The notes under the pieces are model-generated. The model saw nothing but the letters and a program-made list of their open reading frames with translations. It did not search any database and had not been told where the DNA came from. From positions 2,542,001 through 2,606,000 of the forward strand of contig CM102285.1 in the NCBI GenBank assembly GCA_046563655.1: a stretch of 64,000 nt of DNA, given 5' to 3'. The position numbers and the translations under genes are program-made. This document shows, piece by piece, positions 5,890 to 27,371 of this stretch; the stretch's first letter is position 1, and each line of letters starts with the position of its first letter. The DNA comes from Yuukianura sp. NJ FZ-2021 (lineage: Eukaryota).

Positions 5890-8800
5890 ATGGAATCCGA
5901 CGACGTCGAAGCCAACTCGGAATCGGAACTCTTATTTAACCAAACACCTACACAAGGTGAAAATACATTTAGTGACAAAATCAAAATAAAGCCAAATCTT
6001 AAATTTTGAATTTTTTTCTCAATAATTTTTGTTGTACAGGAACCTCAAGAAAGCCGTTCTACAACTATGGCGGTCTCAATCGAATTCCCAAGCAACACAC
6101 TACACCACCATCCCCTCCATCGTCTGCTTTTGAAGCAAATCTCACCAGTTTCAAAAAATTGGCAAGCAAACTTGGATTTGGATTGGCGGACAGTGGATTA
6201 CCATCGTCACCAGAGTCGCGCATGACTCTAGGTCTCATCAATGTGATTCCTGACGAAGAACAAGCTGGTCCAGTGGGATTTGGAACAGTAAGTTAGGCAT
6301 TTATTAGTAATTTTAGCAAAACCAAAATTTTGGAGAAAATGTAACTTCGTAGACTATTCTAATTTGAAAATTTTTTCATGATTTCTAAGTTTTTAAAAGT
6401 TACAGAAAATGAACAATTTCAGGCACCTTTGACGCCTAGCAGGTACATTCGTCGATTAAGCATCCTTGGTCCACGTCCTCAACCAATTGAAGAAGTGACT
6501 TCCAGGAGTTCAGTAGATGAACAGTGGAAAATGAATTACAAGGAAGCTGCAATTTACTTGGAAGAAGGAAACAACAATGAAGAATTTTGCAGTCATCCAA
6601 AAAGGACAGAATCGCTGCCAGCATATTTAATGGCACACACGCGGTGGTTCTATCTAGTGGACTTCACTGTTTCGTTGCTACTGCTCTGTTTAACTATGAT
6701 TGAAGCGCCGACGATTTCAACACTAAACGTAATTAAATAAAAAACAACATAATTTTAGAATATAGACGTAATTTTCTGCCTAAGCACATCAGAACTTTTA
6801 GTTTTCTCAACTTACCCCAACTTTGTTGTTTATGTTTTCCTCTAGGTGGCGCCAACTATCCAAGCTTCGTTGGAGCTAACATTTTTGTACACAATTGGAC
6901 TCGGTGTGATAATTAAGACGAGATGGCTTGGACTGCGGAAAACTTTACTGCACCACCGCACACTGTTCAAAATTATCGTACTGTTGCTCATGACAACAGA
7001 AGCAATCGTCATTCTAGTCAGAGGAGTCACGCACTTTCGGATTTCTCGGTGTCTCCGCCCCGTTTTTATTCTTGACAATCGGCATCTCCGAGGAGTTCGA
7101 AGATTCGCACGACAAGTGAGTCCTAGATGCATCTTTGCAACTTTCAAAATTTTAAATTCTAATTTAATTTTTCTAAAAATCTTTTAATTTCAGATTCTGC
7201 AATGCATGCCTCCAATTCTAGACATGTTGGTTCTCCTCTTCTTTTTCATTTTCATCTTCAGTTTACTTGGACATTTTTTATTTGGAGGAAATCGGGTTGA
7301 TCCGTTCTTCCGTACAGTTGAAGATTCATTTGTCAACTTGTTCATTTTGTTAACAACGGCAAATTATCCGGATATCATGATGGAATCATATTACAAGAAA
7401 CCACTCAACGTCCTCTTCTTTGTGTGTTACCTCGGAGTAGTTCTTTACTTTTTTACTAATCTGGTAAGAGTTTTGAAAATTTCGAAAACTTTATTATAAT
7501 CGATTTCTTTCTCGCAAAAAAACGCACTTTTCTAAAAAATTATGCATTTTTATTTTCAGTTATTGGCAGTCGTCTATGACAACTTTACGGCTGTCGAGCA
7601 AGAAAAATTGCGCAAACTCGTTCTGCACAAAAGAAAAGCATGCCAGAAAGCATACCATTTGCTCGTCTCTAAAGCGAACAATCACGGCATAATTTTCCGA
7701 CACTTCTGTGGAATGGTCATGGTCTACAAACCAAATAAACGTAAGTTTTTCAACTAAAATGAATGTTTCCAAGTTTTTTGAAACTGTAAATTGTTTCAAA
7801 ATTCTAAACAGCACTTCGTGACATTTATTTAATGTTTCGTGCCATGGACCATTCTCAAGATGGGTATCTGAACAAGGAAGAATTTTGCAGATTTTTTGAA
7901 TACATTGAGCACCGATGGAGTCCGCTTCTCACGGTTCCTCAAAAACCGTGGAAACATTTTAAGCGCTTTGGAATTCTGATGGTCCAATTCTTGGATTCGA
8001 AATACTCGGATTACCTCTTCAGTAAGTTCTTCTTAGCAAAAAATTTGAAAGTATTTTGGAAAAATTTTTATCGAATTTTTTTCAGATTCTCTGGTTATAA
8101 TCAACACTATTTTGATGCTTGACCGTTGGATGAGTGATGCGCGTGAGCCAACATGGGATTCCTGCCTGTTTGCGTTTTTATTCTCGGTGGAATTGACGTT
8201 AAAAACGATCACGTGGGGAAAGCTACGCATTTTGAGTTCTGGATGGCAAATATATGACCTTCTAGCGACAATTGCTTTTGCGTTTGCCACCGTCCTTAGC
8301 CTATTTCTTCCAAAATGTGGTGAAGTTTTGTTTTTTATGCGACCACTTCGTCTCGTTCGTCTTTTCAAATTGAAAAAACGCTACAGAAATGTCCTTGGAA
8401 CTCTATTTGTACTGTTAATTCCAATGGCTTCTGCGTCAGTCATACTAGTTTTCCTTTACTACTTCTTCGCTATCATCGGAATGGAAATTTTCAGAGGAAT
8501 TGATCTCAGAAATTGCTGCAATGGAACTCTAATTGAGTCATATTTTACTACACCCGAAGATGAAGACACTTTTGCACTACGATTTTACTTGAACACTTTC
8601 AGCGTAAGTAAGGAAGTTTATTTCGCAATACCGTATTTCCTGGCAAATGACACAATTTTTATATTAAAACTCTTGGAAAACTGACACATATTTTGAAAAT
8701 CCAAGTTCAAGTTTTTGAATTACATTGAATTTTTTTATGTTTTTCAGAATATTTTTCAAAGTTATGTGACGCTATTTGAACTGATGGTGGTGAACAACTG

Positions 8801-9218
8801 GTATGTGATTATGGAAGGTCACGTGCGTGTGACGTCACGATGGAGCAGAATCTACTTTTTTCTATTTTACTTGTCGACGATGATTTTGCTCAACATTGTA
8901 GTAGCATTTATTTTGGATTCGTTTCTGTTTCGTATGCGCTACAAACGCACAATTAACAAGTCCGCGGAAGACAAACTCCTGCGCACGGAGGTTCTTCTTA
9001 ATTCAGATGAAATCAATTTCTGTTACCATCAGCTATTTCAAAATGAACAACGACGAGCAGAAATTCTGGAGGCATATGGAGCTGACTTGACCAGAGCTGG
9101 AACAATTACGTACGTTGGCAAAGGAAAGAGGACTAAAGAAATTTTGTTTAAAAGAGTTTGCAAATCCGAAGTTTCTGACTGGATAAAAAACAGCGAAGAA
9201 ATGTTTCCAAAAACTTAG
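5890..9218 (+). CDS. TPCN1: Two-pore channel 1 (about 846 aa); exons 5890-5956, 6040-6287, 6423-6728, 6846-7115, 7194-7463, 7560-7740, 7812-8021, 8086-8603, 8748-9218
   Basis: WKMNYKEAAIYLEEG N-terminal signature; pore motifs LLTTANYPD and LMVVNNW; S4 RPLRLVRLFKLKKRYR; all nine exons join in frame with GT-AG sites. Confidence 0.93.
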
Positions 9219-9296
9219 TGCTTTATATAAGCTTAAATGTTACATAAATTTAATTATAGATAGTAACCAATTTTCCTGCAAATATGAAATTTTTAA

Positions 9297-9309
9297 AATA
9301 AACTTTATT
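9297..9309. terminator. Back-to-back polyadenylation signals (AATAAA-C-TTTATT) between convergent TPC1 and riboflavin synthase-RibD genes
   Basis: Palindromic AATAAA on both strands, about 80 nt after the TPC1 stop and about 190 nt after the RibD stop. Confidence 0.45.
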
Positions 9310-9502
9310 TTTTTCTTTCCAGGTTTTTTTTTAACTTTTTTTTTCAAGCTGGCCAGTTTTTCGTTTTTCTAAATTCTAAATTCTGAACCTTCTTATTAAA
9401 TTCTTGCTAAATTCAAATTTCCATTGCGATTACTAGCAATGGTTATGCCATCGATTATTCTAGTAGACGTGGCTTGCAGCGTCAAGATTATTCATTTCCA
9501 AC

Positions 9503-11522
9503 CTAAGGTTTCTCGTCTCTCAAGTATTCCGTACAAACGTCATTTTCATGCACAGAAATATTGAAAAGTTTCCAAAAATTTTGAATTCTTGAGCTCCCTT
9601 TATCATTTGCAGCCATTTTTACTTCACCCCACCCCGGAGTATTTTTGTCATGTAAAATTGGAGCGTGGTAAATGACCAGTTGATTTACGTGACCTTGAGA
9701 AAGCAGAGCTGATCCAAACGTAGCTCCGCCTTCGACCAAAACTTGAAGAATACCGCGTCGACCAAGGTCGGTCAAGACTAAGCCGAACTCGACATGACCG
9801 GCAACCTGCTTCACCTTGGTTACATGTACTCCACTAGCGTACCACTCCAGTGGTACCAAGGCGTCACTGGATGTAAAAATTTCAGTTGGAGCCATTCCGG
9901 TATTCAAAAGGTTCGAACCCAAAGTGAACGGTTTCGATCCAATCACGACTCGTAAAGGCTGAACGAAATTTTGATCGTCGAATCCGAGCGGAAAGCTCCG
10001 CACCGTCAAACTCGGATTATCTTCAACAGCCGTTCCACTACCGACGATAATTGCTTGTGAAGTAGCGCGAAATCTGCAGTGACTGTCGTTTCTAGCAGCC
10101 TTACCACTCACCCATTGTTGGGTTGGATCAGGATTTGTCATTTTGCCGTTCATAGTTGTGGCCAATTTCAAAACTACCCAGGGAATTCCGGTTTTACGGT
10201 GATGCAGATAAGGACATAGGGATTCTGCTGCTTCTTTTTCTAGTACTCCAGTAACAACAGAAATTCCAGCATCGAGCAACCTCTTGGAACCAGATCCAGA
10301 CACTTTCTCATCAGGATCAATCAGACCTATTACAACACGGGCTATCTTGTGCTGGATTAAAAGCAAATCACACGGTCCAGTTCGTCCGTAGTGGCAACAT
10401 GGTTCCAAAGTTGTGTAGCAAGTGGCGCCATCTAGACGATATGCTTGGTCAGTTGCAATTGCATTATTTATTGCGTTTACTTCTGCATGTGGTTCTCCTG
10501 CCTTCCGGTGGTAGCCTTCGGTAATGACATTTCCGTAAGCATCAGTGATTACGCAACTGCAAAACATAGAAAGAAATTTTCTACTTCATTTTACACAACA
10601 AAAAAATATAATTTTTTTTTAATAAAAAATTTTTTTATAAAAAGCTTAGAATGAGCAAAACTTTTAATGTATTACATAGAATTTACTAATAGTAAATTAT
10701 GCAAAATATTCTAATATTTATTAATATTTATATATTCTATACTAATGTATTAAATATTAATATTTTGGCATACCCAACCCAAGGGTTTGGAGCGGAAGTG
10801 AGACGACCAAGTTCTCCTAACTTAATTGCACGATGCATCATTTTTTCATCTAAAGATTTTTGAAATTCTGCAACGGATTGCTGCTTCCCAGACCGCGTGA
10901 CTTCTTGACCTTGGTCAAACTCAACATTGACCTCGTGTCCTTCCTTCCAGAATTGGATTATAGTGTGATGCAGAGTGTACGGTATTATGGATACCCTCAC
11001 CTTGTTATTCTTGATTTCAGCTACAGTCAATGACACTCCGTCAAGGGCAATGCTTCCTTTTGTAGTAACTTGGTTTCCTAGGCAATCGTGTCCACTAAGG
11101 TCTACCCATACCGAAGTACTTCCGTCTTCAAGCGTAGTTAGTTGCGTAATGGGTGCAACTCCATGAACATGTCCAAGCACCATGTGACCGCCCAAGTGAT
11201 CTCCAAATTTCAAAGCTTTCTCCAAGTTGACAAAAGTGTAACCAGCTAAGGTGTTGAAATCAAGTTGAGAAATTTCATGAAAATTCAAATTCGTTTTTGC
11301 TATCGTGCTAAGATTCGTTTTGGATCGCGACTCTTCCATGACGAAAAACACTACTGTGTCATCAGTAGAGTCCAGAACGGTTAAACAGCAGCCGTTGACA
11401 GCAATGGAGTCGCCTGTAGTGCAGTTGATGAAACACGGTGTGGAAGTTTTTACAAAAATTTGATTTGTATTTGGATTGAACATGGCTTTGCCAATAGCAG
11501 TCACGAGTCCTGTAAACACCAT
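9503..11522 (-). CDS. ribE-ribD: Riboflavin synthase fused to bifunctional RibD deaminase/reductase (600 aa); exons 11522-10774 and 10556-9503
   Basis: MVFTGLV start, GDSIAVNGCCLTV, VNLE..GGH.V.GHV, KGSIALDGVSLTV. The phase-2 intron 10773-10557 (GTATGC...TTGCAG) rebuilds PNPWVG|CVI. Then HAE, PCCHYGRTGPC, DNPSLTVR and VEGG. Confidence 0.93.
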
Positions 11523-11849
11523 GGTAAATTCAGCTCGATGCTCAAAAGCTTTAAAAAATAATTCACTACTAAGTTTCTTGGCAGTTGAAATGAGGTTCAA
11601 AATTTTACGTTAACTTTTCGAAAATCCCAACGCAGCGAAAACTTTAGACTTACAACTGATGCCAACAAGTACAACTAATGACAAATATGTGTGCATTAGG
11701 CGCTTGTAATTAGTTTGATTATTAAACTAATAAGCTTCACTACTTGAATTAGTAAAGGATTACAAAGTGGGTACAGGAATGAATGCTATATGTTTAATGT
11801 TTATGCTCTCTCACTCTCATCAGAATCGCCTGATTTGTATGTGGTCTCA

Positions 11850-12296
11850 ATTTTGACTAAAAAACATTCAAAATCAAAGTCCAGCGTCGACAAATTTTTG
11901 AAGAAAAACGCTTTGTTTCATAGTTAAAAAATGCAATGTCTTAAGTTGACTTTGTTGCTATGTATGTGGCGATGACAATCTTTTTAATTATTAAAAAAGA
12001 GTTTTCCGTATACAAATTGACTTTTAATGAATTGGGGCACCATCATTAAAAGTTAATTTGTATTGATAGTTTGTGAATAACTACCTTCCCGACACGTCAT
12101 ACTCAACTAAATTCAGAATTCACGACCCAAATTTTGAACCAATCACTTAAATTCAAAACGGAAACCTCAAATTAGAATTTAAATTATAACTACCCACGGA
12201 ATTCTTAAGCACAAACTCAGCTTTAAAAACCCAAATTCAGAGCTGAAACTCCAGTTTGAAACCAAAATGGACTCAAGTGCTCCAAAACTCGCTTCC
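11850..12296 (+). repeat. Copy 1 of a duplicated promoter/5'UTR/start-codon block (copy 2 at about 13605-14049)
   Basis: Colinear similarity by eye, from ttttgactaaaaa...caaagtcca through gctgaaactccagttt...ccaaaatggactcaa; boundaries approximate. Confidence 0.85.
12010..12063. promoter_or_regulatory. 21-bp inverted repeat with 12-nt loop upstream of ribH
   Basis: atacaaattgacttttaatga-N12-tcattaaaagttaatttgtat (one mismatch, G-T). The repeat is directly visible; a regulatory role is inferred. Confidence 0.5.
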
Positions 12297-12785
12297 TCAT
12301 CTTCGGCTAAATATTTCAAATCCATACCTGTTCTTCCACAAATTTGTCAAGACAAAACCAAATTGAAGATTGGAATCGTAAGAGCAGGTTGGAACGGCGG
12401 CTTGGTTGATCCATTTGTAGCTGCCCTAAAGAAATGTTTGGCAGAGAATGGAATTGGATTGGAGCAAATCACGGAGATTCTAGTGCCGGGCTCATTTGAA
12501 ATTCCACTGGCTGCGAAAAACTTGAGCTCATCTGTCGATGCTGTAATCGCCGTGGGAGTTCTATTGAAGGGAGAAACTTTGTACTTTGAAATGATTTGCG
12601 AGTCGATCGTCCATGCCCTGATGAAGACTCAATTGGACACGGGCGTTCCAATTGTCAATGCTGTTTTCAACTGCTTGACGGAGGCCCAGGCGCACACGCG
12701 GTGCAATCCAACAAGTCAGTTGGTAGAATCGCTTGTGGCTACAGCAATATATATGGCGGCATTAAAACAGAAGACACTCGCTTGA
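12267..12785 (+). CDS. ribH: Stand-alone lumazine synthase-like protein (172 aa), with His-to-Tyr change in the GETxH motif
   Basis: KIGIVRAGWN, VPGSFEIP, GETLYFE, TGVPI, QAHTR; AATAAA at 12861. Confidence 0.9.
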   Translation: MDSSAPKLASSSSAKYFKSIPVLPQICQDKTKLKIGIVRAGWNGGLVDPFVAALKKCLAENGIGLEQITEILVPGSFEIPLAAKNLSSSVDAVIAVGVLLKGETLYFEMICESIVHALMKTQLDTGVPIVNAVFNCLTEAQAHTRCNPTSQLVESLVATAIYMAALKQKTLA

Positions 12786-13763
12786 AAAATTCCTACATTG
12801 TAAACTAATACTTATAGTATTAGGTTACATTAGAACGCACAACTATAAAACTCAGAGTGTAATAAAAAGTCTTGAGATTTTGGGTAGTTTTTATTTCCGT
12901 CATCGGTATTATTTTGGTTTGCCGTGCAAACTCAGATTTTCTTGAATCTTGTTTTTTTTTTTTTTTTACAAATTACAGATACCCTCTAAAAGTTTAAAGG
13001 TATTTTTTTAACCCTTGAATTTTTGAAATTTTTTGAAATAAAAAGTTCTTTGATTCTGCAGAGCCTGTAAATCTGAGGAATCTTTAAGAAATCATTCTAA
13101 AATTGCAAAATTGCAAACACTCTGCATAGTTGAAACCAAAATTAAAGGGGTCACTCACTCTTTCTTTTCCTAATTCCTGCTCAATTAGGAAGGCAATTTT
13201 GGCAACTTAGGTTCTGTAGTGATATGTTATGTTGTTATGTTATGGTATGCCAAATAGTAGCCTTATACTATCTCATTTGTGACTCCATATCTAATTATGC
13301 ATTTCCGATATCATTTTCGTCATATCTCTACACTTCAAAATCTTAGGTCACGTTGGTTTAGATGTGAATTTAACATTTCTTGGTAATAAATGATTTCTTT
13401 TTAAATAAAAACTCCTCAAGAGGTATGCTCAGTACAGATATGCTTCAATTAGTTTAAAAATTGATCTTTATCAAACACGAAGGCACAAAATTTCAAAAGA
13501 AGTTTCAAAAAATTCGCAATTTCATTGGTGCATAAAATCAAAATCCCACATTAGGGGGTAAAGAAATAAAATAAAAACAACTCTCAGTTTACAATATTTT
13601 CAATTTCGACTAAAAACTGCTCAAATTCAAAGTCCAATGTCAACAAATTTTTGCAGGAAAACGTTTTGTTTCATAATTTAAGGAATCGGGATAGCTTATG
13701 TTCACGGTTTTGCTATGTGGCCATGACAATCTTTCTAATTCTAAAAAAAAAAGAGATTTCCTT

Positions 13764-13817
13764 ATACAAATTGACTTTTAATGAATTTGGGTCACCTCAT
13801 TAAAAGTCAATTTGTAT
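13764..13817. promoter_or_regulatory. Perfect 21-bp inverted repeat with 12-nt loop upstream of ribBA-ribH
   Basis: atacaaattgacttttaatga-atttgggtcacc-tcattaaaagtcaatttgtat. A regulatory role is inferred. Confidence 0.5.
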
Positions 13818-14019
13818 TTACTGCTTGTGAATAATTACCTTCCTGACAACTCAAATTCAACTAAATCCACAATTCACAACCCAAATTTTAAAACCAAGCA
13901 CTCAAATTCAAAATCGAAACCTCAAATTAAGAGTTAAAATTAAAACTACGCATTTTTGAAACACAAACTCACCTTTTAAAAAGCAAAACAAAAAGCTGAA
14001 ACTCCAGTTTAAAGCCAAA

Positions 14020-15870
14020 ATGGACTCAACTGGTCCAAAATTCGCTTCAATTCCAGAAGCACTGGATGATTTCCGTGCCGGAAAATTTCTTATTGTAGTC
14101 GACGATGAAAACCGAGAAAACGAGTGTGATCTAATACTGGCAGCTCAGTTTGCTTGTCCAGCCAAAGTTGCATTTTGTGTTAACTACACCACTGGCATTT
14201 TGTGTGCTCCAATGACAGCTCTCCGAGCAAGTAAACTTCAACTACCAATGATGGTCCATGCCAATCAAGATCCAAATCGCACAGCATTTACAGTCACTAC
14301 TGACTCAGTTGACACTTCTACTGGAGTCAGTGCTTCAGACAGGTCAGTGACCTTTAAGCAATTGGCAGATCCAGAGGTCAAGGCACGTCAGTTCCGGCGA
14401 CCCGGACATATTTTCCCGCTGATTGCTCGTGCTGGCGGTGTGCTAGAACGGCCTGGTCACACCGAAGCGGCTGTAGATCTTTGTAAGCTATCTGGCTTAT
14501 CTCCGGTTGGTCTGATTGGAGAACTCGTCAATAAAGATGGGACGATGAAAAGATTAAGAGATGGCGCTGCATTTGGAATGAAACACAACATTAAGTTGAT
14601 TAGCATTGAACAACTCATATCCTACAGGCTGTCGAACCATAGCCTCAAAGTAGAAGATTTTGGAGCTTCAAATTTCAAATTTCAAAATTCGTACGGAGTC
14701 GAACTCGTTTCGGAATGCAAAATACCGGTTTGTTTGCGAGAAACCGATTTTGGAACATGGGCACTCAAGTGCTTCTTTTCCCATTTGGACGGAAGACATC
14801 ACGTGGCCCTGGAACTAGGTGACTTTTCGGAACAACCCGTCTTGACACGAGTGCATTCGGAATGCTTCACGGGAGATGTGATTGGATCACAACGTTGTGA
14901 CTGTGGCGAACAATTGTACAGATCAATTCAAATGATTGCCGCAGAGGGCCGCGGATTTCTTTTGTACAATGTTGGACACGAGGGAAGAGGAATTGGGCTT
15001 GCAAATAAAATTTTGGCCTATCATTTGCAACAAACTAAAAACATGGACACTTTTGCAGCAAATGAGGCTCTTGGATTTTGTGATGACTCGAGAAACTATG
15101 ATACTGCCAAGGCCATTTTGAAATTTGTGGGCATTGAAAAAATACATCTCATCACGAGCAACAAGGAGAAAGTGCGGGGTTTTCAAAATTTTGTTGATGC
15201 TGTTATTCCATTGGATGGAACGCCCAATCCACACAACCATGCATATTTGAAAGCAAAGAAAGAAAAGAATAGAAATGGCGCCAAGGATGAAACAGTTTTG
15301 TCTAATTTTGGTTCAATTCCGAATCAGGCCATCTCTTCGTCGGAATCGGCAGATATTTCATCCAGTAATGTTCCAGAGCGGGAAGATTTGAGTAAACATT
15401 TCAAATCTGTACCCGTTCTTCCCGAAATTTGTAAGGACACAACCAAACTGAAGATTGGTATTGTACGAGCCAGTTGGAACGACGGGTTGATTGGTCCATT
15501 TGTATCAGCACTTAAGAAAAATTTGGTCGAAAACGGAATTCAGTTGGAACAGATCACGGAAATTCTAGTGCCGGGATCGTTTGAAATTCCGCTTGTTGCG
15601 AAAACTTTGAGTTCTTCAGTGGATGCTGTAATTGCAGTTGGAATTTTAGTGAAGGGAGAAACTTTGCACTTTGAAATGATTTCCGCATCGGTGGTTCATG
15701 CTTTGATGAAGATTCAACTGGACACAGGCGTTCCAATCGTGAATGCTGTTTTCAACTGTTTGACGGAGGCCCAGGCGCATACGCGGTGCAATCCAACAAG
15801 TCAGTTGGTAGAATCGCTTGTGGCTACGGCAATATACATGGCGGCGTTAAAACAGAAGTCATTCACTTAA
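14020..15870 (+). CDS. ribBA-ribH: Trifunctional DHBP synthase - GTP cyclohydrolase II - lumazine synthase fusion (616 aa, intronless)
   Basis: RibB: DDENRENECD, TAFTV, RPGHIFPL, GHTEA. RibA: RVHSECFTGD..SQRCDCGEQL, HEGRGIGL. Ser-rich linker. RibH: GSFEIP, GETLHFE. Confidence 0.95.
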   Translation: MDSTGPKFASIPEALDDFRAGKFLIVVDDENRENECDLILAAQFACPAKVAFCVNYTTGILCAPMTALRASKLQLPMMVHANQDPNRTAFTVTTDSVDTSTGVSASDRSVTFKQLADPEVKARQFRRPGHIFPLIARAGGVLERPGHTEAAVDLCKLSGLSPVGLIGELVNKDGTMKRLRDGAAFGMKHNIKLISIEQLISYRLSNHSLKVEDFGASNFKFQNSYGVELVSECKIPVCLRETDFGTWALKCFFSHLDGRHHVALELGDFSEQPVLTRVHSECFTGDVIGSQRCDCGEQLYRSIQMIAAEGRGFLLYNVGHEGRGIGLANKILAYHLQQTKNMDTFAANEALGFCDDSRNYDTAKAILKFVGIEKIHLITSNKEKVRGFQNFVDAVIPLDGTPNPHNHAYLKAKKEKNRNGAKDETVLSNFGSIPNQAISSSESADISSSNVPEREDLSKHFKSVPVLPEICKDTTKLKIGIVRASWNDGLIGPFVSALKKNLVENGIQLEQITEILVPGSFEIPLVAKTLSSSVDAVIAVGILVKGETLHFEMISASVVHALMKIQLDTGVPIVNAVFNCLTEAQAHTRCNPTSQLVESLVATAIYMAALKQKSFT

Positions 15871-16006
15871 AAAAAGCCAGCATAATAAACTATTTATGCC
15901 TTCGCGCAAATGTAAGAGAACAGAAAATTTTCAACAAAAATTATTTTTAAAAACCCTGAATTTTGCCATTATGTTTTGCTGTAACATTTACAATGTCCAC
16001 CACTAG

Positions 16007-16160
16007 TTACAACAAGATGGAGGAATGTTGGCGTGAAGAACCTGTGCACCGCCCACCCTTTGCAGAACTTGTTGCCTTCTGCAGAAAAATTCACCACAAT
16101 GAGAAAACTTTGTATATATTTAACATCCCAGTGATTACTAGCTTACAGCTATTAAAATAA
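16007..16160 (+). pseudogene. Isolated exon resembling tyrosine-kinase subdomain XI
   Basis: After CTAG acceptor: YNKMEECWREEPVHRPPFAELV, matching Y.xM..CW...P..RP.F..L; no other kinase exons seen in the window. Confidence 0.6.
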
Positions 16161-16447
16161 GTGTTCTTCCAGCTTGTTAAAAATTAAAGCTAATCTGTAA
16201 ATTTAATGGAAATCAAAAACTCTTGTGCAGTAACGATCAAAGTTTTAGCTGGAAGTTATTTTTAATAAAGGGTATAAGTGTTAGCCTGAACAACCTTGAA
16301 CAAAGATTTGAATACAACATTGTCCAATGGATCATTCCATACTGTATAACCTTATTGCTTCAAAATTTATTGCCTTCCGGTTTTAGTTTTTGGTTAATGC
16401 ATGTTAGAATTTATCAATGCCATTTTTTGAGGCACTGCGGTGCTGAT

Positions 16448-16924
16448 TTACTCCTTTGTATTTAGCGCCTTTTGAATCCATACTGCAAACTCGTTCACAG
16501 AAATTCTGCCATCGTGATCAGTGTCAGCGTCTTTCAAAAGTTGTTCGTAGCTTGAATCCTTGAGTCGCTGATCATGCGTAACGACAAATTGCAGGAAGTA
16601 GTCAAATTCTTCACGCGAAATATATCCATCTCCATCTTTGTCGTAAACTCTTGCGGCTGTTAGCATTGCGGCTGCCGTATCATGAAGCAACTGCATGAAC
16701 TCCATGTAGAGTTCCAACGGTAACCTGCCACCATAAAATTTCTCAAAGAATCCAACGTAGTTTTCTACTTGTTCTGGCGTCCGATCCCAATCCATTTGCT
16801 TGATGACTTCGAAAAAGTCACTTGTTGCAACTGATTCACCATCAAAAGTTGGCATCGACCGGTACGTCTGCTTGAGTTCTTCTAATTCCGAAGCTGAGAG
16901 AGGTTTCGTGTAGTCACGCGGCAT
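16448..16924 (-). CDS. Calmodulin-like EF-hand protein A (158 aa)
   Basis: Canonical loops DKDGDGYISREE and DTDHDGRISVNE in the C-lobe; N-lobe loops degenerate; ATG at 16924 aligns with paralogues. Confidence 0.88.
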   Translation of the reverse strand: MPRDYTKPLSASELEELKQTYRSMPTFDGESVATSDFFEVIKQMDWDRTPEQVENYVGFFEKFYGGRLPLELYMEFMQLLHDTAAAMLTAARVYDKDGDGYISREEFDYFLQFVVTHDQRLKDSSYEQLLKDADTDHDGRISVNEFAVWIQKALNTKE

Positions 16925-17759
16925 CCTAGAAACCAAAATTTTCTTTGACAATTTTCAGTTTTGAAACAAATTGTTCAAATTTCACGTAATCCTGTTGAGG
17001 GTATAACGACTGACTCTTCTTGACCTGAATGATTGAGATTTAAAGGGAATAATTTTGCTAAATGTTATTCAATTAGCGTAAACCACTGATTCCAAAACCG
17101 CAAAACACGTAACAAATGTGGTGTTACAATGATACAGAATGTTTAACAAAAGAGTGGTTTTTTAAACTGATATGTGTTTTCTGAGTCTTGAATTATGTAG
17201 AACAGCATACGACATGACTTCCTCAAATTCTTCCCGCAAAATAAATCAATCGTTGCTTTTCTCGGATGACGCGCTCCAGTCTGCATTATATCCGCCGTAT
17301 CATAAAGTTGCTGAACACAATACAAAAATCTGGACAGATATACTGCCAGCATAACTTCTCGAAGTAGGAGACAAATAACGTTGACTTCTTCTGGGCTTCG
17401 CATGCTCTTTAGTTGCTGTATTCCTGTAGGGTAACGGGATATGCGGTAGTCTGGTGGCATTTTACAGAATTTAACTTGCCGCAAAAATTACAACTATAGA
17501 AGTTGCTCCACTGATATGTATGTTAACAAGAATAATAACAAAACAGACCACTTAACTTTAATAATTTTTTTAATTAGAGTAAACCGCTAATACCAAAACC
17601 AGACAAAGGTTTGCCGTAATCTGGAGGCATCCTTCCAAAAAGGAAGCAGACTTTTGATTGGAGTTAAACGAAAAACTTTAGTAGACTTAAGAAAAAGAAT
17701 CCGTGCAGAATAAAATGGACTTGTGTGTTACTTTTGCTGAGAATAAATAAAAGAACAAC

Positions 17760-17835
17760 CTTTATTAAGTATCGTCAGATACTTATAGGCATCGTCTTGT
17801 CCGTCCGTTCATCCGTCTGTCCGTCCGTCCGTCTG
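17760..17835. repeat. Hairpin plus (GTCC/GTCT)n microsatellite resembling a DINE-1/Helentron-associated element end
   Basis: taagtatc-gtca-gatactta stem after a T-run, followed by gtccgtccgttcatccgtctgtccgtccgtccgtct. Confidence 0.5.
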
Positions 17836-18745
17836 AAGTCCCTTGAATATAAAAATTTTTTACTGTGAACCAGACCTTGCTAAGTCCTTGATCTCACCAT
17901 GCTTATTTATATCGTTTTTGCAAGAAGTTTATTTTATTTTTTTTTTAAGAAGTAATTGACCCAATTCGCTCTAACACGATGATTTCTAAACCATAAAGCT
18001 TAATTTAACTAATAAAACCAGTACAAGATACTGTTTCTTAGCGGTGTTTTGTTTTTTTGGAAGGTGTTTTCCAAACTGAAAAATACCTCAGTCTACTTAT
18101 TGAGCGCTAACATAGAAATTATCATTTTTTTTCAAATTTTATATAGAAGCCTTATGGAGCAAATGTTTTTGAAAAGCTAAGTTTTTTCATAAGCTCTGTT
18201 TTTGGAAGCGGAAAAAGCAACAACAGAAACCACTTTCTAAGAAAAGACAATAACCTGTAATATTTTTAGAGTCACACAATCATTTCAAAACAAATGAAAC
18301 CACGAAGTTTATTGAATTAGTGTAACCACTTTAAGAAATGTTGTTTTCATGTATTCATTGCTGAAAGAACGAAGCGAACAATTGTAACTAATGACATTTC
18401 GGTAAAACTCCGCTAATTTTAATCAATATAACTCATGTAGTGTTTTTGTCCCTGCTAGTGATAATATTTGTGAACACCCATAAATGTCATTGAAAAAAAG
18501 GACCTCTGATTAAAAAAAAAAAACAAAGTGCTGTTTTTTTAAAATTTATCTAGGATTTTATTTACAATTTATTTAACAGGAATTAACTGATCCGTGATTG
18601 CTTGGTCGACGAGAAGTCAAAATTTCATTTCACAAGTCATTGTTAGCTTAAAGCGTTTTTTTTCTGTTTCTTTGAAAATATGTACTCAAAAATAAAGTTG
18701 TAGTTACGCGAGTTGATCAATTTAGGTTGTCATTTCTTTATTGCC

Positions 18746-19213
18746 TCAATTTATCATAGCTCTAATCGAATCCGCAAAATCTTCCACGCTCACTTTGCCC
18801 CCATGTTCAGCGTCTGCTTTTTCAAAAACTTCTGCAAAGTCGTTCCCCTGCAACCTCGGATCATGCGCGACGATGATACCTTTAAATTCTTCGAAATCTT
18901 CTTTGGACAGCAGTCCATCTCCATTTGTGTCGTACGGCTTAGCTCGAACCTTCATCACTGCAGCCGTGTCGTAGATATTTGCCAAGCTTTCTTGAACGAT
19001 ATGCAACGGAAATCTTCCTCCATAAAATCTTGCAGAGTAAGTCCTGTACGCCTCCACTTGTTCTGGACTTCTCTCCCATCCTATTTTCTGCCAGAAATCT
19101 GCCGTATCAGCGCCTGCAATCGAATTGTCTTCAAAACTCGGCATGGAACGAAAAGCTTCTGCGATTTCCTCCAAGTCTGAAGTGGAAAGCGGTTTTGTGA
19201 AATCTATCGGCAT
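18746..19213 (-). CDS. Calmodulin-like EF-hand protein B (155 aa)
   Basis: MPIDFTKPL start; loops DTNGDGLLSKED and degenerate DAEHGGKVSVED; TATA-like TTTATAAA about 80 nt upstream. Confidence 0.88.
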   Translation of the reverse strand: MPIDFTKPLSTSDLEEIAEAFRSMPSFEDNSIAGADTADFWQKIGWERSPEQVEAYRTYSARFYGGRFPLHIVQESLANIYDTAAVMKVRAKPYDTNGDGLLSKEDFEEFKGIIVAHDPRLQGNDFAEVFEKADAEHGGKVSVEDFADSIRAMIN

Positions 19214-20391
19214 TCTGGAGAAGTTGAACTTTGAAGTTTTCTGCAGACGGAAATCTACAACTAAACTTGGAAAATAGACTGAAGGTCTTTTTATAAAGGC
19301 TGGTGCTATTGATAGTTTCAGTTGAATTGTAAAGAAACTACGCAACTTGAGTTAAAATATTAGGACAGAGAAGGTCAAGTTGCCTGCTCGCTAAACTTTT
19401 AAGCAATAAACAACAGTCGACACGCCTTCGAAATTCTGCCAAAAAACAAAAATTTGAATTTTGAAAATAATAATTTGTCGAAAATTTATCCACTGGAAGA
19501 ACATTTATCATTTGACTAACAAAACTGTGCGCCTGTAAACACACCCCGTGCAATGCAAACATTGACACATTACTATTGCATAATGCATAAACAATTTACT
19601 CTCAAGGCCGAACGCCCTAAACTGGAATTCAGGAAACATACGATCCAAAGACTCAAACATGGCATCGAAAGGTCAGCATTATTCGAGAAATTTCTGAAAT
19701 TTTGCAAAATATGAAGAAAAACCATATTATGTGTATAATTTCGGGGCATTTGGAAAAAATTCAAAATCTTGTCAATTTATGAAAACAAAAATACATGGAG
19801 AGTAATTACGAGGAAAAAGGAGCCGATCCACTGAGAATTGAAAAACAGACCATCCGTGTCATTTTTTAAAGCCTGTTTAGTCCAATACTAACATTTCTCA
19901 GCAGATTTCCAAACTTTTGCCTAGTTTAGTTCTGATTTGAAAACCATCGATGAATTTCATTAACCAATCTGAAAATATTAGTATGACGAACGGTTTCAGC
20001 ATTGAATTTTACAACATTTGGAGTTTATGTGGAATTACCAATATGAAATTATCGTTTCTTGCGTCAGTACTTCTAGTTACACTAATGAAATTTTCGCGAC
20101 ATTAATAAAGAGAAAGTGTATAAATATATTAGGAGTTTTTTTGACATTTTATTTCTTTCAGTTTTAAAATAAAACAATTACAATTATTGAGTTTAATTCC
20201 AATTGAGTTTAGATTAAACAATAACATGTTTAATTATATTTGTTCTAACTTTTTTTGGTGTCATAAACATTAACATAAAATATTTTGCTACTTTAACGCA
20301 ACAATTTCTCAGAGGAATAAATTCTTAAACGAAAAAACTTCTCTCAGCGGCGAGCTATTCGATGTGCTGCTTACAAGAATCCCCATAAATC

Positions 20392-20862
20392 TTACTGCAG
20401 CGTGGTATTGATCGAATCAGCAAATTTTTTCAAGCTCACTTTGCCATCATGGTTGGTGTCTGCATCGTTGATGACTTCCGCAAAGTCCTTGTCCTTCAAT
20501 CTGGGATCGTGAGTGACTATAGTATTTTTTATTTCCTCAAAATCCTCTCTGGAAACCAGCCCAGCGCCGTTTTTGTCGTACACTCTGCTGCCAATCAGCA
20601 CTGATGCTGCTGTGTCATGTGCCTGTGCCATGGATTCCATAAAAAGTTCTAGCGAAAACCTCCCTTCAAAAAACTTGTCAAAATATGCGCTGTACGCAGC
20701 AAGTTGTTCCGGAGTTCGCTCCCAGCCAATTTTGCTGAACAACTCAGCCGAGTCGCTACTGTTACAAATTGAGCCGTTTTCAAATGTCGGCAACGATCGA
20801 AAAATTTCTGCCATTTCTTCCAGGTCTGCAGCGGCAAGCGGTTTTGTAAAATCTCGTGACAT
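20392..20862 (-). CDS. Calmodulin-like EF-hand protein C (156 aa)
   Basis: Paralogue; loops DKNGAGLVSRED and DTNHDGKVSLKK. Confidence 0.88.
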   Translation of the reverse strand: MSRDFTKPLAAADLEEMAEIFRSLPTFENGSICNSSDSAELFSKIGWERTPEQLAAYSAYFDKFFEGRFSLELFMESMAQAHDTAASVLIGSRVYDKNGAGLVSREDFEEIKNTIVTHDPRLKDKDFAEVINDADTNHDGKVSLKKFADSINTTLQ

Positions 20863-21459
20863 TTTTGCAATTTTTGTTTACCTTTCCTTGTTTAGGGGCA
20901 GGGTTGAAATTCAGCAACTGATTAAAAATTGGCATTTAGCCCTTTTATACAGCTTTGCTTAATGATAATTTTGAAACTACGCAACTAAACTAACTTTAAA
21001 TGCGCTGATGTACACAAGGTCACAGATCACTCGTTACATAAGTTGTACATCCATAAAATCACAAACGTTTTTTTAACATTCGGTCAAATTGTTAAAACAT
21101 ATTGTATATATGTAATGTAGATAAAACATAAAAAATTTAAAAAAAATGTACAGAAAAACAACAAATAATCACACCCAAAAATAAAATCGGAAAATGAATA
21201 ATATCTTTTGTAATTTTATTTTCTTTTGGTTAATAAATGTTTCCACGCCCACTTCTCCTAGTGACAAATTTATATCCTTGTTCTTTCTCAAAAATTTTGA
21301 ATTTTTATTTATTGATTGGCTCGAATTCATGATATTGTGGATTAAGCTAGTAGCAACTACTAAATACATGCAATAAAGTTTTTTCAAATCTATAGCATGT
21401 GTTTTTCAAATGCTATTGAAGCAAAGCTACTACTCATGTTGCGATTCGACGCGTTGATT

Positions 21460-21933
21460 TCAGTCTGACTTTAGCGCAGTTTTAATCAAAGCAGCAAATT
21501 CTGCCAAGCTGACTTTCCCGCTATGATTGACATCTGCATCTGTCATGAGCCGAACAAAAGCCGCTTCCTTCAACTTTGGCTCATGCGTGATCATAGTTTT
21601 TTCCAGTACACTAAAATCCTCTTTAGAGACCAGACCGTCCCCGTTTATGTCGAACACTCTGGCTCCGATTAACATAAGTTCTGCTGGATCTTGAACGATT
21701 GCCATTCCTTCTTGGAAGATTTGGAAAGGAATCCTCCCGCCAAATTTTGTTTCATAGTAGGAGCTGTATGCAGAGATTTGTTCTGGGGTCCGATCCCACT
21801 CAATTTTCTTGAAAAACTGAGCCAATTCACTAACTGAGATTGATTCATCTTCAAACGACGGCATCGACCTAAAGGATTCTGCGATTTCCTCCAAATCCGA
21901 ATTGGAAAGAGGTTTTGTGAAATCTCTAGTCAT
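21460..21933 (-). CDS. Calmodulin-like EF-hand protein D (157 aa)
   Basis: Paralogue; loops DINGDGLVSKED and DVNHSGKVSLAE. Confidence 0.88.
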   Translation of the reverse strand: MTRDFTKPLSNSDLEEIAESFRSMPSFEDESISVSELAQFFKKIEWDRTPEQISAYSSYYETKFGGRIPFQIFQEGMAIVQDPAELMLIGARVFDINGDGLVSKEDFSVLEKTMITHEPKLKEAAFVRLMTDADVNHSGKVSLAEFAALIKTALKSD

Positions 21934-23023
21934 TTTCCAAATTTAATTTTAATTTTGCGGATTTAAGAGAAAAAAAAAGTTGCAAATTAAATCAGTAACT
22001 AATCAAAAGAAACACACGTTTGGTCTACTTTATATGCGACCTTCCATGGCTTGCTTCCTTTAAAGATTAAAACATTTCCAAACCAAGTTCATGTAATTAC
22101 TGAACCGACACAGTATGATAACATAAGCGCCGTCGTATACTTAAGTGTCACTTTAAATCTCAAGTCAACTGAAACCACATCTGCCTGATTCCGGATTTGA
22201 GTTTGCTTTAAATTTTGGGAGTGGAAATGCTCAATTCATTTACAAAGAACTGAATCAGCGTATCTTTTAAGATTTACATATCCTTTACAATATTGTCAAA
22301 AAATATTGAGCAATCCTGGAAATTTATTGTCTAAAAAGTAACTACTTGTCATATAACTACTACTACTTCTCATTTTATTTTGTTGCGAAAACTCTCCTAT
22401 TCGTCCCGCCTCATTACCAATTTCCCACTATTCTCGTCCATCATTGTCAAGTTAAAAGAAGGTTTTCATGAAACATTGAATTTTACGAGAATTTTTCTAA
22501 ATTGAATAACAAAATTTGGATCTTAACGCCTCGCGTTTGAGGGATTGAAAGAAGTTACAACATACAACACTAGTAAAGTTAATTTCAGTGTTTGTCCGAT
22601 TACGTAACAGGATTCCGTGACTACTAAGATGATTTACAGAACATACAACAAACCCCTACACATACGAAAATCGTTTGAAAATAAAACAATGTTAGTTTCA
22701 AAATTTAAAAAAAAAACCTAAGTATTGATGTCTTTATTAGATAAATGTTTTTCTTGAGGCCATTTTGACTTAAAATTTCATTCTTGGCATTGTGCGAATG
22801 AAGGTAAAATAAATAAAACGTTCAAACAATGTATTCTTGTGCCACTGAAATTGTTAAAGGCAATTGTAATAACATTTTATTGACACCGTCAAGAGAAGTA
22901 AAAGTTGATTGATAAAGGAAAGGTGAAGCGTAGAATGAAAAATTTTTAGCAGTAACTTGAGTTCGTTCTTTTAGCTGTTCTTCGGAACTGTTTTTTTAGC
23001 TGGATTCTACTACAACAGTAAAA

Positions 23024-26000: not shown

Positions 26001-27371
26001 TGTTGAAGTGGCTAAGAAGTACAAGATTTGGGTTCACGTTGACGGAATGTTTGGAGGACTCCTTGTAATGTCGGATAATCAAATTGAAAAATTCCACGGA
26101 ATTGAGCAGTAAGTTAAGTTGCATATCAGAAACTAAATTACAACAACGAAAAAGAAAGAGAAAAATTGCAACATAATTTGCAACATAACAAAAAATAGCA
26201 TCTTTTATATTTTTTTTTATGTAAAAAAAAGGAAACAGAATTTCTGTTTCCAAACCGCTTATTTTTACGTCCATTTTTAGAACGAACTTTTGTGTTCGTC
26301 GTTTTTGATTGCGACGCTTGTGTGGAAAAACTTACTTTTTTCAGAAACAAGTCCGTTTACTTTGTGTACAAAATTTCATGATAATTTCTATGATAAATTG
26401 ATAAGGCAGGCGTGTGAGATTTTTCAAATTTAAAAATGCCTTCTAGTAAAAATAGCCAAAGTGTAACTCGAAAATGTTCTTGCAGGGTAGATTCTTGGGG
26501 AGCAGATTTGCACAAGCTAATGGGATCTGCCATGGTTTGTACCGTTTTAGTAACAAAACACAAAGGCATCTTGCGAAAAACCTTTCAACTTGCTGATGAA
26601 AGTCAAGAAAATGTATGGATAGACAAAACAGACAGCATTCCAGAGGAGTTGAGTTTGGTCGGTAGACATTTGCAGTTGGACAAAAGAAACAACGTTTTCA
26701 AATTTTGGTTGCTCTGGAAAGCAAAGGTTAGCGAAACTATACAATTTTGTGTTTGTTCACTTAAATGTAAGAATTGTACGTTTTTGTACAGGGAAGGAAA
26801 GGCATGGAAGCTCATGTTGACACAATCATGGACAACGCTAACTTTCTAGTTTCCGAAATTAAAAAACGGAAAAATGTTGGATTTGAACTTATACTTGAAC
26901 ATTACGACTTGACCAACATATGTTTTCGCTACATTCCGCCCTACTTAAATCCAGACATAAACAACAAAGTAAATCGCACTAGCGACGATTGGGCAAAACA
27001 AATGGACATGGTAAGCAAAACTGGTAAATTTTTTTTAATTTTTCGGTATAGTTTTTTAAAGCCAAACCCTTATTTTGTCATAGTATACGTTCTCAGTGGA
27101 AAAGGAATTTGTCAAAAACGGCATTACGTCCTTTGTCACACAGAAGCGACATTCTGCCGGCGGCGACAGTCCAATGTTTATAAAATTTGTGATGATGGGA
27201 TCTGCTTTGACGCAAGACGACATTCGATACTTGTTGAATGCCATTGCATTTCACGGAAGTCAAATCAAAGCTGAACCGAGCAGCAGAGCACGGCAAGGAG
27301 CTTTTGACGACTATGTAAGAGGCAAATTTGAGCCGTTTGGAAATTTGCCCAGATACTATCGAGTTGCTTAG
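23024..27371 (+). CDS. Signal-peptide-bearing double-domain group II PLP decarboxylase (GAD/CSAD-like), copy 1, 1100 aa; exons 23024-24021, 24149-24371, 24477-25198, 25280-25611, 25687-25818, 25961-26108, 26486-26726, 26792-27010, 27084-27371
   Basis: Two GAD-like repeats (WLHVDAELAGG and WVHVDGMFGG; DSWGADLHKLMG; VFKFWLLWKAKG; TNICFRYIPP). Exon phases are consistent; intron 4 needs a GC donor. Confidence 0.88.

Follow-up and report, generated by a model that had tools for sequence, protein, structure and literature searches.

A riboflavin-pathway module in a springtail-like genome, probably acquired ready-fused from a non-animal eukaryote or its giant virus

How does an animal chromosome come to carry the enzymes for making riboflavin? 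In the 64-kb stretch of DNA analyzed here (the window), a reading of the sequence alone had claimed RibA, RibB, RibD (deaminase and reductase), RibH and riboflavin synthase, carried by two fusion genes within positions 9503-15870. Pfam placed every one of these domains where that reading had put them, and the six activities each have strong Pfam and PDB matches. Both fusions stand, but the inventory was incomplete: a third gene, RibH2, had been overlooked. No prior report of a complete riboflavin pathway in an animal was found in the literature. The explanation that we consider probable is that a three-gene riboflavin module, now part of the nuclear DNA of a springtail-like hexapod, was horizontally acquired from a non-animal eukaryote, or its giant virus, already carrying both fused genes side by side.

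The rib genes of the window

The RibB-RibA-RibH fusion (14020..15870, plus strand) is intronless and encodes 616 aa, ending in a TAA stop. RibB (about 14041-14631) is followed on the same strand by RibA (about 14695-15270), a low-complexity linker of about 55 aa, and RibH (about 15436-15852). Pfam returned DHBP_synthase at E 5.3e-76 (profile positions 2-191 of 191), GTP_cyclohydro2 at 1.8e-49 and DMRL_synthase at 2.2e-34. In the PDB, the RibBA structure 4i14 aligned with aa 9-417 (E 1.2e-88), and lumazine synthases with aa 473-591. The RibA part retains three invariant cysteines (C282, C293 and C295), which presumably have a zinc role. In RibB, the motif RENEGDL reads RENECDL, with Cys36 (codon 14125-14127) at a position that is Gly in 118 of 118 homologues.

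The RibE-RibD fusion (600 aa) lies on the minus strand in two exons. Exon 1 (10774..11522), whose reading frame from the ATG at 11522 was confirmed, carries riboflavin synthase with its two lumazine-binding barrels (aa 1 to about 204), a linker, and the N-terminal ~21 aa of the deaminase of RibD up to PNPWVG. The ORF at 10737-11600 (minus strand) matched Lum_binding in two stretches (2.7e-31, Pfam), and PDB riboflavin synthases align from residue 1 (E 3.1e-28). Exon 2 (9503..10556, minus strand) carries the remaining deaminase, in which HAE and PC..C are retained, followed by the RibD_C reductase; the frame closes with TAG at 9503-9505. Here the ORF at 9503-10567 (minus strand) matched dCMP_cyt_deam_1 (2.8e-14) and RibD_C (5e-30) in Pfam, and PDB RibD matches reached E 2.5e-52. 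In the S-L-D-G motif of the reductase, the Asp found in 120 of 121 homologues is replaced by Asn386 (codon 10148-10150). A literature search found no text on this residue or on the RibB Gly-to-Cys position.

Between the exons lies a spliceosomal-type GT-AG intron of 217 nt (10557..10773, minus strand; GC 0.157), with donor GG/GTATGC at 10773 and acceptor TTTTGCAG/T at 10557. It interrupts the Gly codon of the PNPWVG/C motif, and the intron previously proposed inside PNPxVG/C is borne out by the sequence. With 10774-11522 spliced to 9503-10556, the CDS stays in frame over 1803 nt and the motif is restored (...PNPWVGCVITD...), and the predicted product is colinear with the uninterrupted homologue P0258, in a single HSP (residues 1-594 to 1-589) at 52% identity.

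RibH2 (12267..12785, plus strand) is a stand-alone lumazine synthase of 172 aa (Pfam DMRL_synthase 1.2e-33), in which a Tyr (12582-12584) replaces a conserved His found in 42 of 44 relatives.

Setting in the host genome

Does the module belong to the animal, or was DNA from a protist or other cobiont misjoined to arthropod sequence? On one side lies a multi-exon gene for the two-pore channel TPC1 (6471..9218, plus strand), traced by tblastn with residues 19-744 of the Orchesella protein; it shows five or more clear introns and a stretch with changing frame. Its top match among the 120 listed was TPC1 of the springtail Orchesella cincta (58% identity across 645 unmasked residues). In the tree the two are sisters (SH-aLRT 100) within Pancrustacea, in agreement with the earlier view of the host as an animal. 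TPC1 (stop codon 9216-9218) and RibE-RibD (stop codon 9503-9505) are convergent in the assembly sequence; the adjacency had been described correctly, but the gap of 285 nt recounts to 284. On the opposite side of the rib region are GAD/CSAD-like and EF-hand genes. The first EF-hand gene (16448..16951, minus strand; EF-hand_7 3.1e-14, Pfam) is followed by three additional copies, making a tandem array of four (16448-21942, minus strand). The taxonomy of the EF-hand gene is uninformative.

Since animal-type genes lie on both sides, an artefact would require two false joins. The TPC1 and RibE-RibD stop codons lie a mere 284 nt from each other. The window contains no N at all, and the composition of the rib region is indistinguishable from that of its flanks: GC3 is 0.39-0.46 in the rib genes and 0.38-0.45 in TPC1 and the EF-hand genes, and the tetranucleotide correlation with the remaining window is 0.966 (0.955-0.984 for other 6.4-kb segments outside the PKS). 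The closest named holders of these genes are, it is true, a patchy set of soil animals, the assemblies of which could carry cobiont DNA, and some of the sequences are short (contigs of 22-41 kb in Rotaria sordida, a scaffold of 218 kb in Schistocerca). The Ditylenchus pair, however, lies on a 4.84-Mb contig. Contamination or misassembly is therefore considered very unlikely.

Origin of the fusions

Where did the genes come from? The sequence-only reading had called them bacterial-type and horizontally acquired, with gene fusion in the host taking the operon's place. Horizontal acquisition agrees with genes that are foreign in type, intact and intron-bearing, with flank-like composition and a position between animal-type genes. 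"Bacterial-type" is apt for the deep ancestry (bifunctional RibBA, RibD) but not for the fusions, both of which fall in a eukaryote/giant-virus clade. Phylogenies had been proposed as a way of finding the donor. In a careful triple-fusion/RibBA tree of 32 eukaryote or giant-virus rows and 15 bacterial rows, the former split from bacterial RibBA at 100/100. The window's triple fusion falls inside a clade of 24 cellular-eukaryote rows (96/94), where it groups with Rotaria and P0007 at moderate support (86/91). In the RibD tree, the window belongs to a 9-row clade (support 97, starred) that includes the Ditylenchus RibE-RibD fusion and partners from contigs equal in size to those of triple-fusion proteins in the matching clade; the two fusions seem to move together as linked genes. 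Most close relatives are metagenome or Logan proteins, and no Collembola name appears among the 120 listed triple-fusion matches.

Could bacterial rib genes instead have moved directly into the animal and been fused there, replacing the operon? The bifunctional RibBA and RibD and the reductase Lys are of bacterial type (the latter according to PMC3631187), and the B-A-H order mirrors the ribBA-ribH adjacency of many bacterial loci. However, the same two fusions are present in Arcella, Eutreptiella, Ceratiomyxa, giant viruses, Rotaria sordida, Ditylenchus destructor, a Schistocerca scaffold, all of them members of the clade, and in many other sequences. (Arcella and Ceratiomyxa are Amoebozoa, and Eutreptiella is a euglenid.) A scan of 185,579 prokaryotic species gave 35-47% identity for its 80 best loci and never more than 47%, compared to 50-58% inside the eukaryote-type clade, and all 7 bacterial loci inspected had ribBA and ribH as distinct neighbouring genes, divided by a stop codon. 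Because the same fusions occur in other members of a clade from which bacteria are separated at 100/100, with such low prokaryotic identity and unfused bacterial loci, they appear to have been inherited from the donor rather than made by the host, and the placement and the identity gap together imply that they are older than the transfer. A direct bacterial origin, with fusion in the host, is thus highly improbable. More probably, the donor was protist-like rather than a bacterium and the genes were taken ready-fused, in a transfer of two adjacent genes from a non-animal eukaryote or its giant virus.

The locus still resembles a bacterial rib operon in its enzyme set, with bifunctional RibBA and RibD. 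The operon order in Bacillus subtilis is ribD-ribE-ribBA-ribH, and many of the bacterial loci examined have ribH directly after ribBA and ribD upstream. In contrast to the window, these loci consist of separate genes without introns, at 35-47% identity. The fusion has E before D, where the operon has D before E, and an Rfam search of 9000-17000 (E up to 1) matched no family and hence no FMN riboswitch. Giant-virus and protist fusions share the domain orders of the window and the same non-bacterial clade, and no stop interrupts the reading frames of the viral triple fusions L081, L096 and L097. They differ in having 38-39% identity to the window and in branching outside the 24-row clade. Penta-fusions (P0040, P0062 and P0071) begin with RibE-RibD and encode E-D-B-A-H as one polypeptide, whereas in the window, on an animal chromosome, the activities are divided between two genes, with a duplicate besides.

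Among animals, the RibB-RibA-RibH architecture is shared by Ditylenchus destructor, Rotaria sordida (e.g., CAF1226109.1) and Schistocerca gregaria (XP_049848135.1) at 46-57% identity; no paper discussing these proteins was found in the literature. In Ditylenchus, RibE-RibD and the triple fusion have consecutive protein accessions (KAI1723491.1 and KAI1723492.1) on one contig and share the window's clades in both trees. These animals represent other host phyla, and no stand-alone RibH duplicate is among their proteins in view. Was the module then present in early animals and lost from nearly all lineages since? All four animal rows (window, Rotaria, Ditylenchus and the Schistocerca scaffold) do share one 17-row clade, but its support is weak (86/52). 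Only three other animal species occur among the 120 listed matches, from a collection with thousands of annotated animal proteomes, and the matches listed include no other annotated bdelloid or springtail. Such vertical inheritance is extremely improbable.

The predicted pathway and the RibH duplicate

If horizontal transfer delivered the module, what would it do? Judging from domain content, RibA would convert GTP to the pyrimidine precursor, which the RibD half of RibE-RibD would deaminate and then reduce. Deamination would come first, since the reductase retains the bacterial/plant-type Lys that marks this order of steps (PMC3631187). The phosphate would be removed by an unlinked, non-dedicated host phosphatase; this step is performed by redundant, non-dedicated phosphatases, according to PMC13151069. 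RibB would supply the four-carbon unit from ribulose 5-phosphate, RibH would condense it with the pyrimidine to lumazine, and the RibE half would dismutate lumazine to riboflavin, on which the host's own kinase and FAD synthetase would then act. Together, the three rib genes are predicted to cover every dedicated step. Enzymatic function is likely, and we infer that the genes are expressed, that the enzymes are active and that the host is a B2 prototroph.

Alternatively, the module could be integrated but incomplete, with one or more steps crippled: a decaying relic, or genes with a reduced or altered function, for instance producing just lumazine or riboflavin-like pigments, or acting together with a symbiont. 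The earlier statement that core motifs are present is accurate for 164 of 167 invariant columns (82 of 83 against other triple fusions, 82 of 84 against other E-D fusions), but it missed three substitutions at near-invariant positions, any of which could weaken a step: the unique or near-unique RibB Cys36 and reductase Asn386, and the His lost from RibH2. There is also precedent in Hemiptera, where single transferred rib genes patch symbiont pathways (PMC4943190). On the other hand, the three frames (616, 600 and 172 codons) run through 1,388 codons without stop or frameshift in DNA of GC ~0.38. The terminal branches of the window do not exceed its relatives' branches in length (0.42 vs. 0.29-0.43 for the triple fusion; 0.58 vs. 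0.36-0.61 for RibD, with P0288 longer at 1.02). Purifying selection acts on the RibH paralogues, with dN/dS of 0.13 (NG86) or 0.18 (ML) at dS 0.49-0.62 over 157 codons. The reductase retains K380, T425, D429, E525 and G527, the last four of which, by spacing and motifs rather than a printed alignment to yeast RIB7, would correspond to yeast Thr79, Asp83, Glu180 and Gly182, reported as necessary for activity in the mutagenesis described in PMC3631187. A crippled pathway is thus unlikely, but not negligibly so.

The Hemiptera also offer the nearest likeness, foreign riboflavin-pathway genes in an arthropod nuclear genome that are read as vitamin provisioning. As tabulated in PMC4943190, these sap feeders have a transferred GTP cyclohydrolase and a fused deaminase/reductase (Planococcus citri) and a riboflavin synthase (psyllid), individual genes derived from bacteria that make up for steps missing from endosymbiont pathways. 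The window, in contrast, has all dedicated steps at one locus in pre-fused, eukaryote-type genes, and on paper would need no symbiont.

How did RibH2 arise? It is the product of a tandem duplication of the RibB-RibA-RibH gene, with RibB and RibA deleted in frame from this copy. Its protein is 84% identical to residues 458-615 of the fusion, and the duplication, at 83-84% identity, includes the promoter with 10 codons as well as the RibH part. The segment 11847..12295 (plus strand), which covers the upstream region of RibH2 and about 10 of its initial codons, matches its counterpart at the triple fusion (13600..14048, plus strand) in blastn at 83% over 340 nt and 84% over 76 nt, and repeat families D2, D3, D4, D7, D11 and D12 mark the same pair of segments. 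By the reading preferred here, duplication in place would have followed arrival, leaving an extra RibH-only subunit that probably assembles together with the fusion's own RibH part. The duplicated region carries a 54-nt palindrome (inverted repeat I1), once at 13764..13817, ~200-260 nt upstream of the triple-fusion ATG, and again at 12010-12063 upstream of RibH2. Its hairpin has a predicted energy of -19.1 kcal/mol (z -9.8), and none of 200 shuffles was equally stable.

Gene content of the riboflavin locus

The riboflavin (rib) genes of the window are a real feature of the locus, and they probably represent a transfer of vitamin genes into animals. The sequence-only reading had recognized RibA, RibB, RibD, RibH and riboflavin synthase in the form of two fusion genes, and searches against Pfam and the PDB recovered every one of these domains. 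The first fusion, RibE-RibD, lies on the minus strand in two exons. The two barrels of riboflavin synthase are encoded in exon 1 (10774-11522), which continues through a linker into the first part of RibD; the exon matches the Lum_binding profile in two stretches (2.7e-31), and solved riboflavin synthases match the RibE part from residue 1-2 (E 3.1e-28). Exon 2 (9503-10556) encodes the remainder of the deaminase (2.8e-14) and the RibD_C reductase (5e-30), and matches RibD structures with E-values down to 2.5e-52.

Between the exons is a 217-nt GT-AG intron (minus strand, GC 0.157), with the donor GTATGC preceded by GG and the acceptor TTTTGCAG followed by T. The intron had been placed inside the conserved PNPxVG|C motif, and the sequence bears this out: splicing restores the frame and PNPWVGC, and the PNPWVG motif of RibD is restored only in this way. 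The spliced gene is 1803 nt long and in frame, encoding 600 aa that include PNPWVGCVITD. (Without splicing, the RibE frame ends at 10737 and RibD is left without its N-terminal motif.) Residues 1-594 of the spliced product align with residues 1-589 of an uninterrupted homologue in a single HSP, end to end, at 52% identity.

The second fusion, RibB-RibA-RibH, is a single open frame of 616 aa on the plus strand (14020-15870). One chain carries the DHBP_synthase profile (positions 2-191 of 191, E 5.3e-76), then GTP_cyclohydro2 (9-156 of 165, E 1.8e-49) and, in the RibH part, DMRL_synthase (2-138 of 139, E 2.2e-34). The RibBA structure 4i14 matches aa 9-417 (E 1.2e-88), and lumazine synthases match aa 473-591. 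The RibB domain begins at about residue 8-13, and there is no N-terminal extension before it.

Are these enzymes intact? The frames of the rib genes are open, and the terminal branches of the window sequences are no longer than those of their relatives, either in a quick RibD tree or in a more careful tree of triple fusions and RibBA proteins. Of the 83 columns that do not vary among the other 25 triple fusions, the one in the window retains 82, including H147, T148, E149 and the three invariant RibA cysteines C282, C293 and C295, which presumably have a zinc role. H550 and R589 are retained in its RibH part. RibE-RibD likewise keeps 82 of 84 columns that are invariant in its relatives; N43, G44, C46, L47 and T48 of the riboflavin synthase are present, as are H273, A274 and E275 (HAE) and P302, C303 and C312 (PCxxC) of the deaminase, and K380, T425, D429, E525 and G527 of the reductase. 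The last four of these correspond to Thr79, Asp83, Glu180 and Gly182 of yeast RIB7 (a mapping from spacing and motifs, there being no printed yeast RIB7 alignment), which are reported to be needed for reductase activity (PMC3631187). The same text describes the lysine equivalent to K380 (Lys152 in E. coli RibD) as a marker of the bacterial and plant order of steps, in which deamination comes first (PMC3631187).

Two substitutions speak against full function. The Gly of the RibB motif RENEGDL, found in 118 of 118 homologues, is Cys in the window, and the Asp of the reductase motif S-L-D-G, found in 120 of 121 homologues, is Asn. The residue proposed as catalytic in E. coli RibD, Asp200, is a different one, and its counterpart here is D429. 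A literature search, which included PMC10366380, found no mention of either position. DHBP synthase is described as having two flexible loops that touch the substrate and the metal (PMC13151069).

An animal host and its flanking genes

The gene closest to RibE-RibD is a multi-intron two-pore channel gene, TPC1 (6471-9218), which ends 284 nt away. Among the 120 matches listed for a TPC1 exon, Orchesella cincta TPC1 was the best, followed by insects and then by a decapod and molluscs, and the window protein is 58% identical to that of Orchesella over 645 unmasked residues. In a 29-row tree (a quick LG+G4 tree, in which the branch of the window is long) the two are sisters (SH-aLRT 100) within Pancrustacea, and together are sister to insects. 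This placement indicates that the host is a non-insect hexapod, nearest to springtails among the taxa sampled.

The opposite flank carries, immediately next to the rib genes, four tandem EF-hand genes (16448-21942, minus), for which an Atlas look-up of the neighbour gave no taxonomic signal. Beyond these is a tandem array of about five two-exon genes for PLP-dependent decarboxylases (23000-47315, plus), nearest to animal GAD/CSAD/GADL1; Pfam matched two of the copies, and one copy matched GAD2 in the PDB (E 2.6e-43). Degenerate decarboxylase pieces are also present at 26418-27274 and 33448-33876. As assembled, the rib genes are thus physically linked with animal-type genes on both sides, and the window sequence is free of Ns. 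Among the sequencing runs listed for this stretch, three DNA runs of one sample, perhaps the source, contain 0.33-0.47 of the sampled words; two others contain small shares (0.14 and 0.08) that are not counted as evidence, and no RNA run is listed.

The rib genes also look like those of their host, having a GT-AG intron, a similar GC3 (0.39-0.46, vs 0.38-0.45 for TPC1 and the EF-hand genes) and a similar tetranucleotide profile: the correlation of 9503-15870 with the rest of the window is 0.966, and that of other 6.4-kb windows outside a polyketide synthase (PKS) gene is 0.955-0.984. Rfam gave no match over 9000-17000, and the rib region therefore appears to have no FMN riboswitch.

A non-ribosomal peptide synthetase (NRPS) fragment in two long open frames (1-2351, minus), with a weak Condensation match below the Pfam cut-off followed by AMP-binding and AMP-binding_C, sits upstream of TPC1, some 4 kb from its coding sequence. 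At the opposite end (54089-64000, plus) is a large reducing PKS in three long open frames, with KS/AT/DH/ER/KR/ACP and a terminal NAD-binding reductase domain. The PKS is the sole part of the window with an outlying tetranucleotide profile (0.887-0.944).

Origin of the fusions

Where did the two fusion genes come from? In a scan of 185,579 prokaryotic species, the best 80 loci come from many phyla and show 35-47% identity. A metagenome scan similarly returned 80 loci, nearly all of them bacterial ribBA/ribH operons at 36-47%, and the closest relatives of the triple fusion, at 50-58% identity, were not among them. Single tblastn HSPs covering residues 7-611 had the appearance of bacterial triple fusions, and these candidates were rejected: in 7 of 7 that were checked there is a stop near residue 400, so that ribBA and ribH are separate, adjacent genes in the same frame. 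(The Atlas contains a second cluster of three-domain proteins, with a 574-aa representative, which is labelled mostly Bacteria; the label is given as annotated.)

Named holders of the triple fusion are the bdelloid rotifer Rotaria sordida, the nematode Ditylenchus destructor, the locust Schistocerca gregaria (on a 218-kb scaffold), Arcella intermedia and Eutreptiella braarudii; the rotifer, nematode and locust are the only other animal species named among the 120 matches listed. The RibE-RibD fusion occurs in the amoebozoan Ceratiomyxa fruticulosa as well. In Ditylenchus, RibE-RibD and the triple fusion have consecutive accessions on a common 4.84-Mb contig, and contigs of matching size suggest four more candidate linked pairs among the database proteins (P0010/P0259, P0017/P0261, P0012/P0276 and P0015/P0288), although in two of the four the RibD partner (P0259, P0261) is not fused to RibE. 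A second RibE-RibD copy of D. destructor (P0378, KAI1723046.1, 777 aa) is located on a separate 4.93-Mb contig. Eight members of the Rotaria protein cluster (P0121-P0123, P0125, P0129, P0131, P0133 and P0134) were dropped, having no match to the fusion; what they share is confined to the adjoining host gene in a merged gene model.

The careful tree (47 rows, 576 columns, LG+C20 PMSF, with a bootstrap that had not quite settled) separates 15 bacterial RibBA rows from 32 rows of eukaryote or giant-virus type at 100/100. Arcella and Eutreptiella share a 24-row clade (96/94) with the window; inside it, support is weak (86/52) for the 17-row subclade in which the four animal rows all fall, and the window groups with Rotaria and the database protein P0007 at 86/91. 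In the quick RibD tree (92 rows) the window belongs to a 9-row clade (97) made up of the partners of the triple fusion's subclade, so that the two genes share a history at that level. The window genes are nested among non-animal sequences and their distribution in animals is patchy.

The initial interpretation, that fusion had taken the place of the operon inside the host, is accordingly not supported: the split from bacterial RibBA is 100/100 and the relatives are already fused. Fusion came before the transfer, and the donor probably belonged to the eukaryote-type lineage. A giant-virus donor was considered and is disfavoured. IMG/VR scans yielded three viral loci (L081, L096 and L097) that are true triple fusions like that of the window, yet are just 38-39% identical to it. 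Fusion has gone further in three other database proteins (P0040, P0062 and P0071), which join RibE-RibD-RibB-RibA-RibH, in that order, in one polypeptide of 1020-1048 aa; P0071 is sister to the giant-virus contig L097 at 100/100.

The locust protein (P0021, XP_049848135.1), called "RibBA-like" in RefSeq and encoded on a 218,639-bp scaffold, is a full RibB-RibA-RibH. Quick trees pair it with the Ditylenchus protein (SH-aLRT 87-91), a pairing that the careful tree does not resolve. It could represent a further transfer into an animal, or it could be cobiont DNA on an unplaced scaffold.

A probable vitamin pathway in an animal and its duplicated last domain

Riboflavin is regarded as a vitamin across the animals. 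A search of full-text articles turned up no genome of a springtail, rotifer, nematode or other animal described as encoding a complete riboflavin pathway, though these genes may appear in supplementary tables of horizontal transfer surveys of springtails, rotifers and nematodes; orthologues are present, unremarked, in the public protein sets of three other animals. The cases described before, in Hemiptera, concern individual rib genes of bacterial origin that mend a symbiont's pathway (PMC4943190), and in a tubeworm paper riboflavin is ascribed to symbionts and stated to be known solely from plants and microbes (PMC11568676). What would be new here is a module that is complete, linked and intron-bearing and that is under selection in a hexapod living free in soil; the notable points are that it is complete, that its origin is eukaryotic and pre-fused, and that it recurs among soil animals.

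With the help of a host phosphatase, the two fusion proteins would convert GTP and ribulose 5-phosphate to riboflavin in the cytosol. (Elsewhere, the dephosphorylation step is carried out by redundant, non-dedicated phosphatases; PMC13151069.) If so, the animal would be independent of both diet and symbionts for vitamin B2. The evidence points to a eukaryote-to-animal (or virus-mediated) transfer in which the whole pathway moved as one pre-fused unit, and soil fauna may have seen such a transfer repeatedly. A broader scenario, attractive but so far short of probable, is that a ready-made two-gene eukaryotic B2 cassette, RibE-RibD beside RibB-RibA-RibH, moved horizontally into several soil micro-animals of separate lineages (a springtail-like hexapod, a bdelloid rotifer and a plant-parasitic nematode), making these the first animals with de novo riboflavin synthesis without microbial partners, and that in the hexapod a duplicate reduced to RibH, which assembles together with the fusion enzyme, later tuned it. 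This bears on why some soil arthropods need riboflavin provisioning of the Wolbachia type and others might not, and the compact two-gene eukaryotic pathway offers a study system.

The duplicate, RibH2, had been overlooked in the sequence-only reading. It lies between the other two rib genes (12267-12785, plus) and encodes a putative lumazine synthase of 172 aa that matches DMRL_synthase over its full length (1.2e-33). Its RibH part (12308-12807) is 84% identical to 15393-15892 in both nucleotides and amino acids, while 11847-12295, comprising about 450 nt of upstream sequence and the first ten codons, is 83-85% identical to 13600-14048; no RibB or RibA remnants were found between the two duplicated blocks. 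This arrangement argues that the fusion gene was duplicated in tandem in its entirety, promoter included, and that one duplicate then lost codons ~11-454 in frame. Over 157 codons, the RibH copies differ with a dS of 0.49-0.62 and a dN of 0.08, giving a dN/dS of 0.13 (NG86) or 0.18 (ML), and judging from these ratios both have long been under purifying selection in this genome.

Why keep a second RibH? In lumazine synthases, which are oligomers, the active sites lie where subunits meet. RibH2 consists of the RibH domain only, is 84% identical to that of the fusion and is under selection; most plausibly it assembles together with the fusion's RibH part into mixed oligomers. Such assemblies would relieve crowding by the bulky RibBA heads, or adjust the stoichiometry. 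Alternatively, RibH2 may have a purely catalytic or ligand-binding role. It retains six of the seven invariant RibH columns; at the seventh, the conserved His, which is catalytic in lumazine synthases, is replaced by Tyr, a further change that counts against function. This residue is His in 42 of 44 relatives, and the triple fusion keeps it. The mixed assembly remains the preferred reading. Both copies of the duplicated promoter contain a 54-nt near-perfect palindrome (12010-12063 and 13764-13817), some 200-260 nt before the start codons of RibH2 and RibB-RibA-RibH, with a predicted hairpin of -19.1 kcal/mol (z -9.8), which could be a regulatory site or the remnant of a small mobile element.
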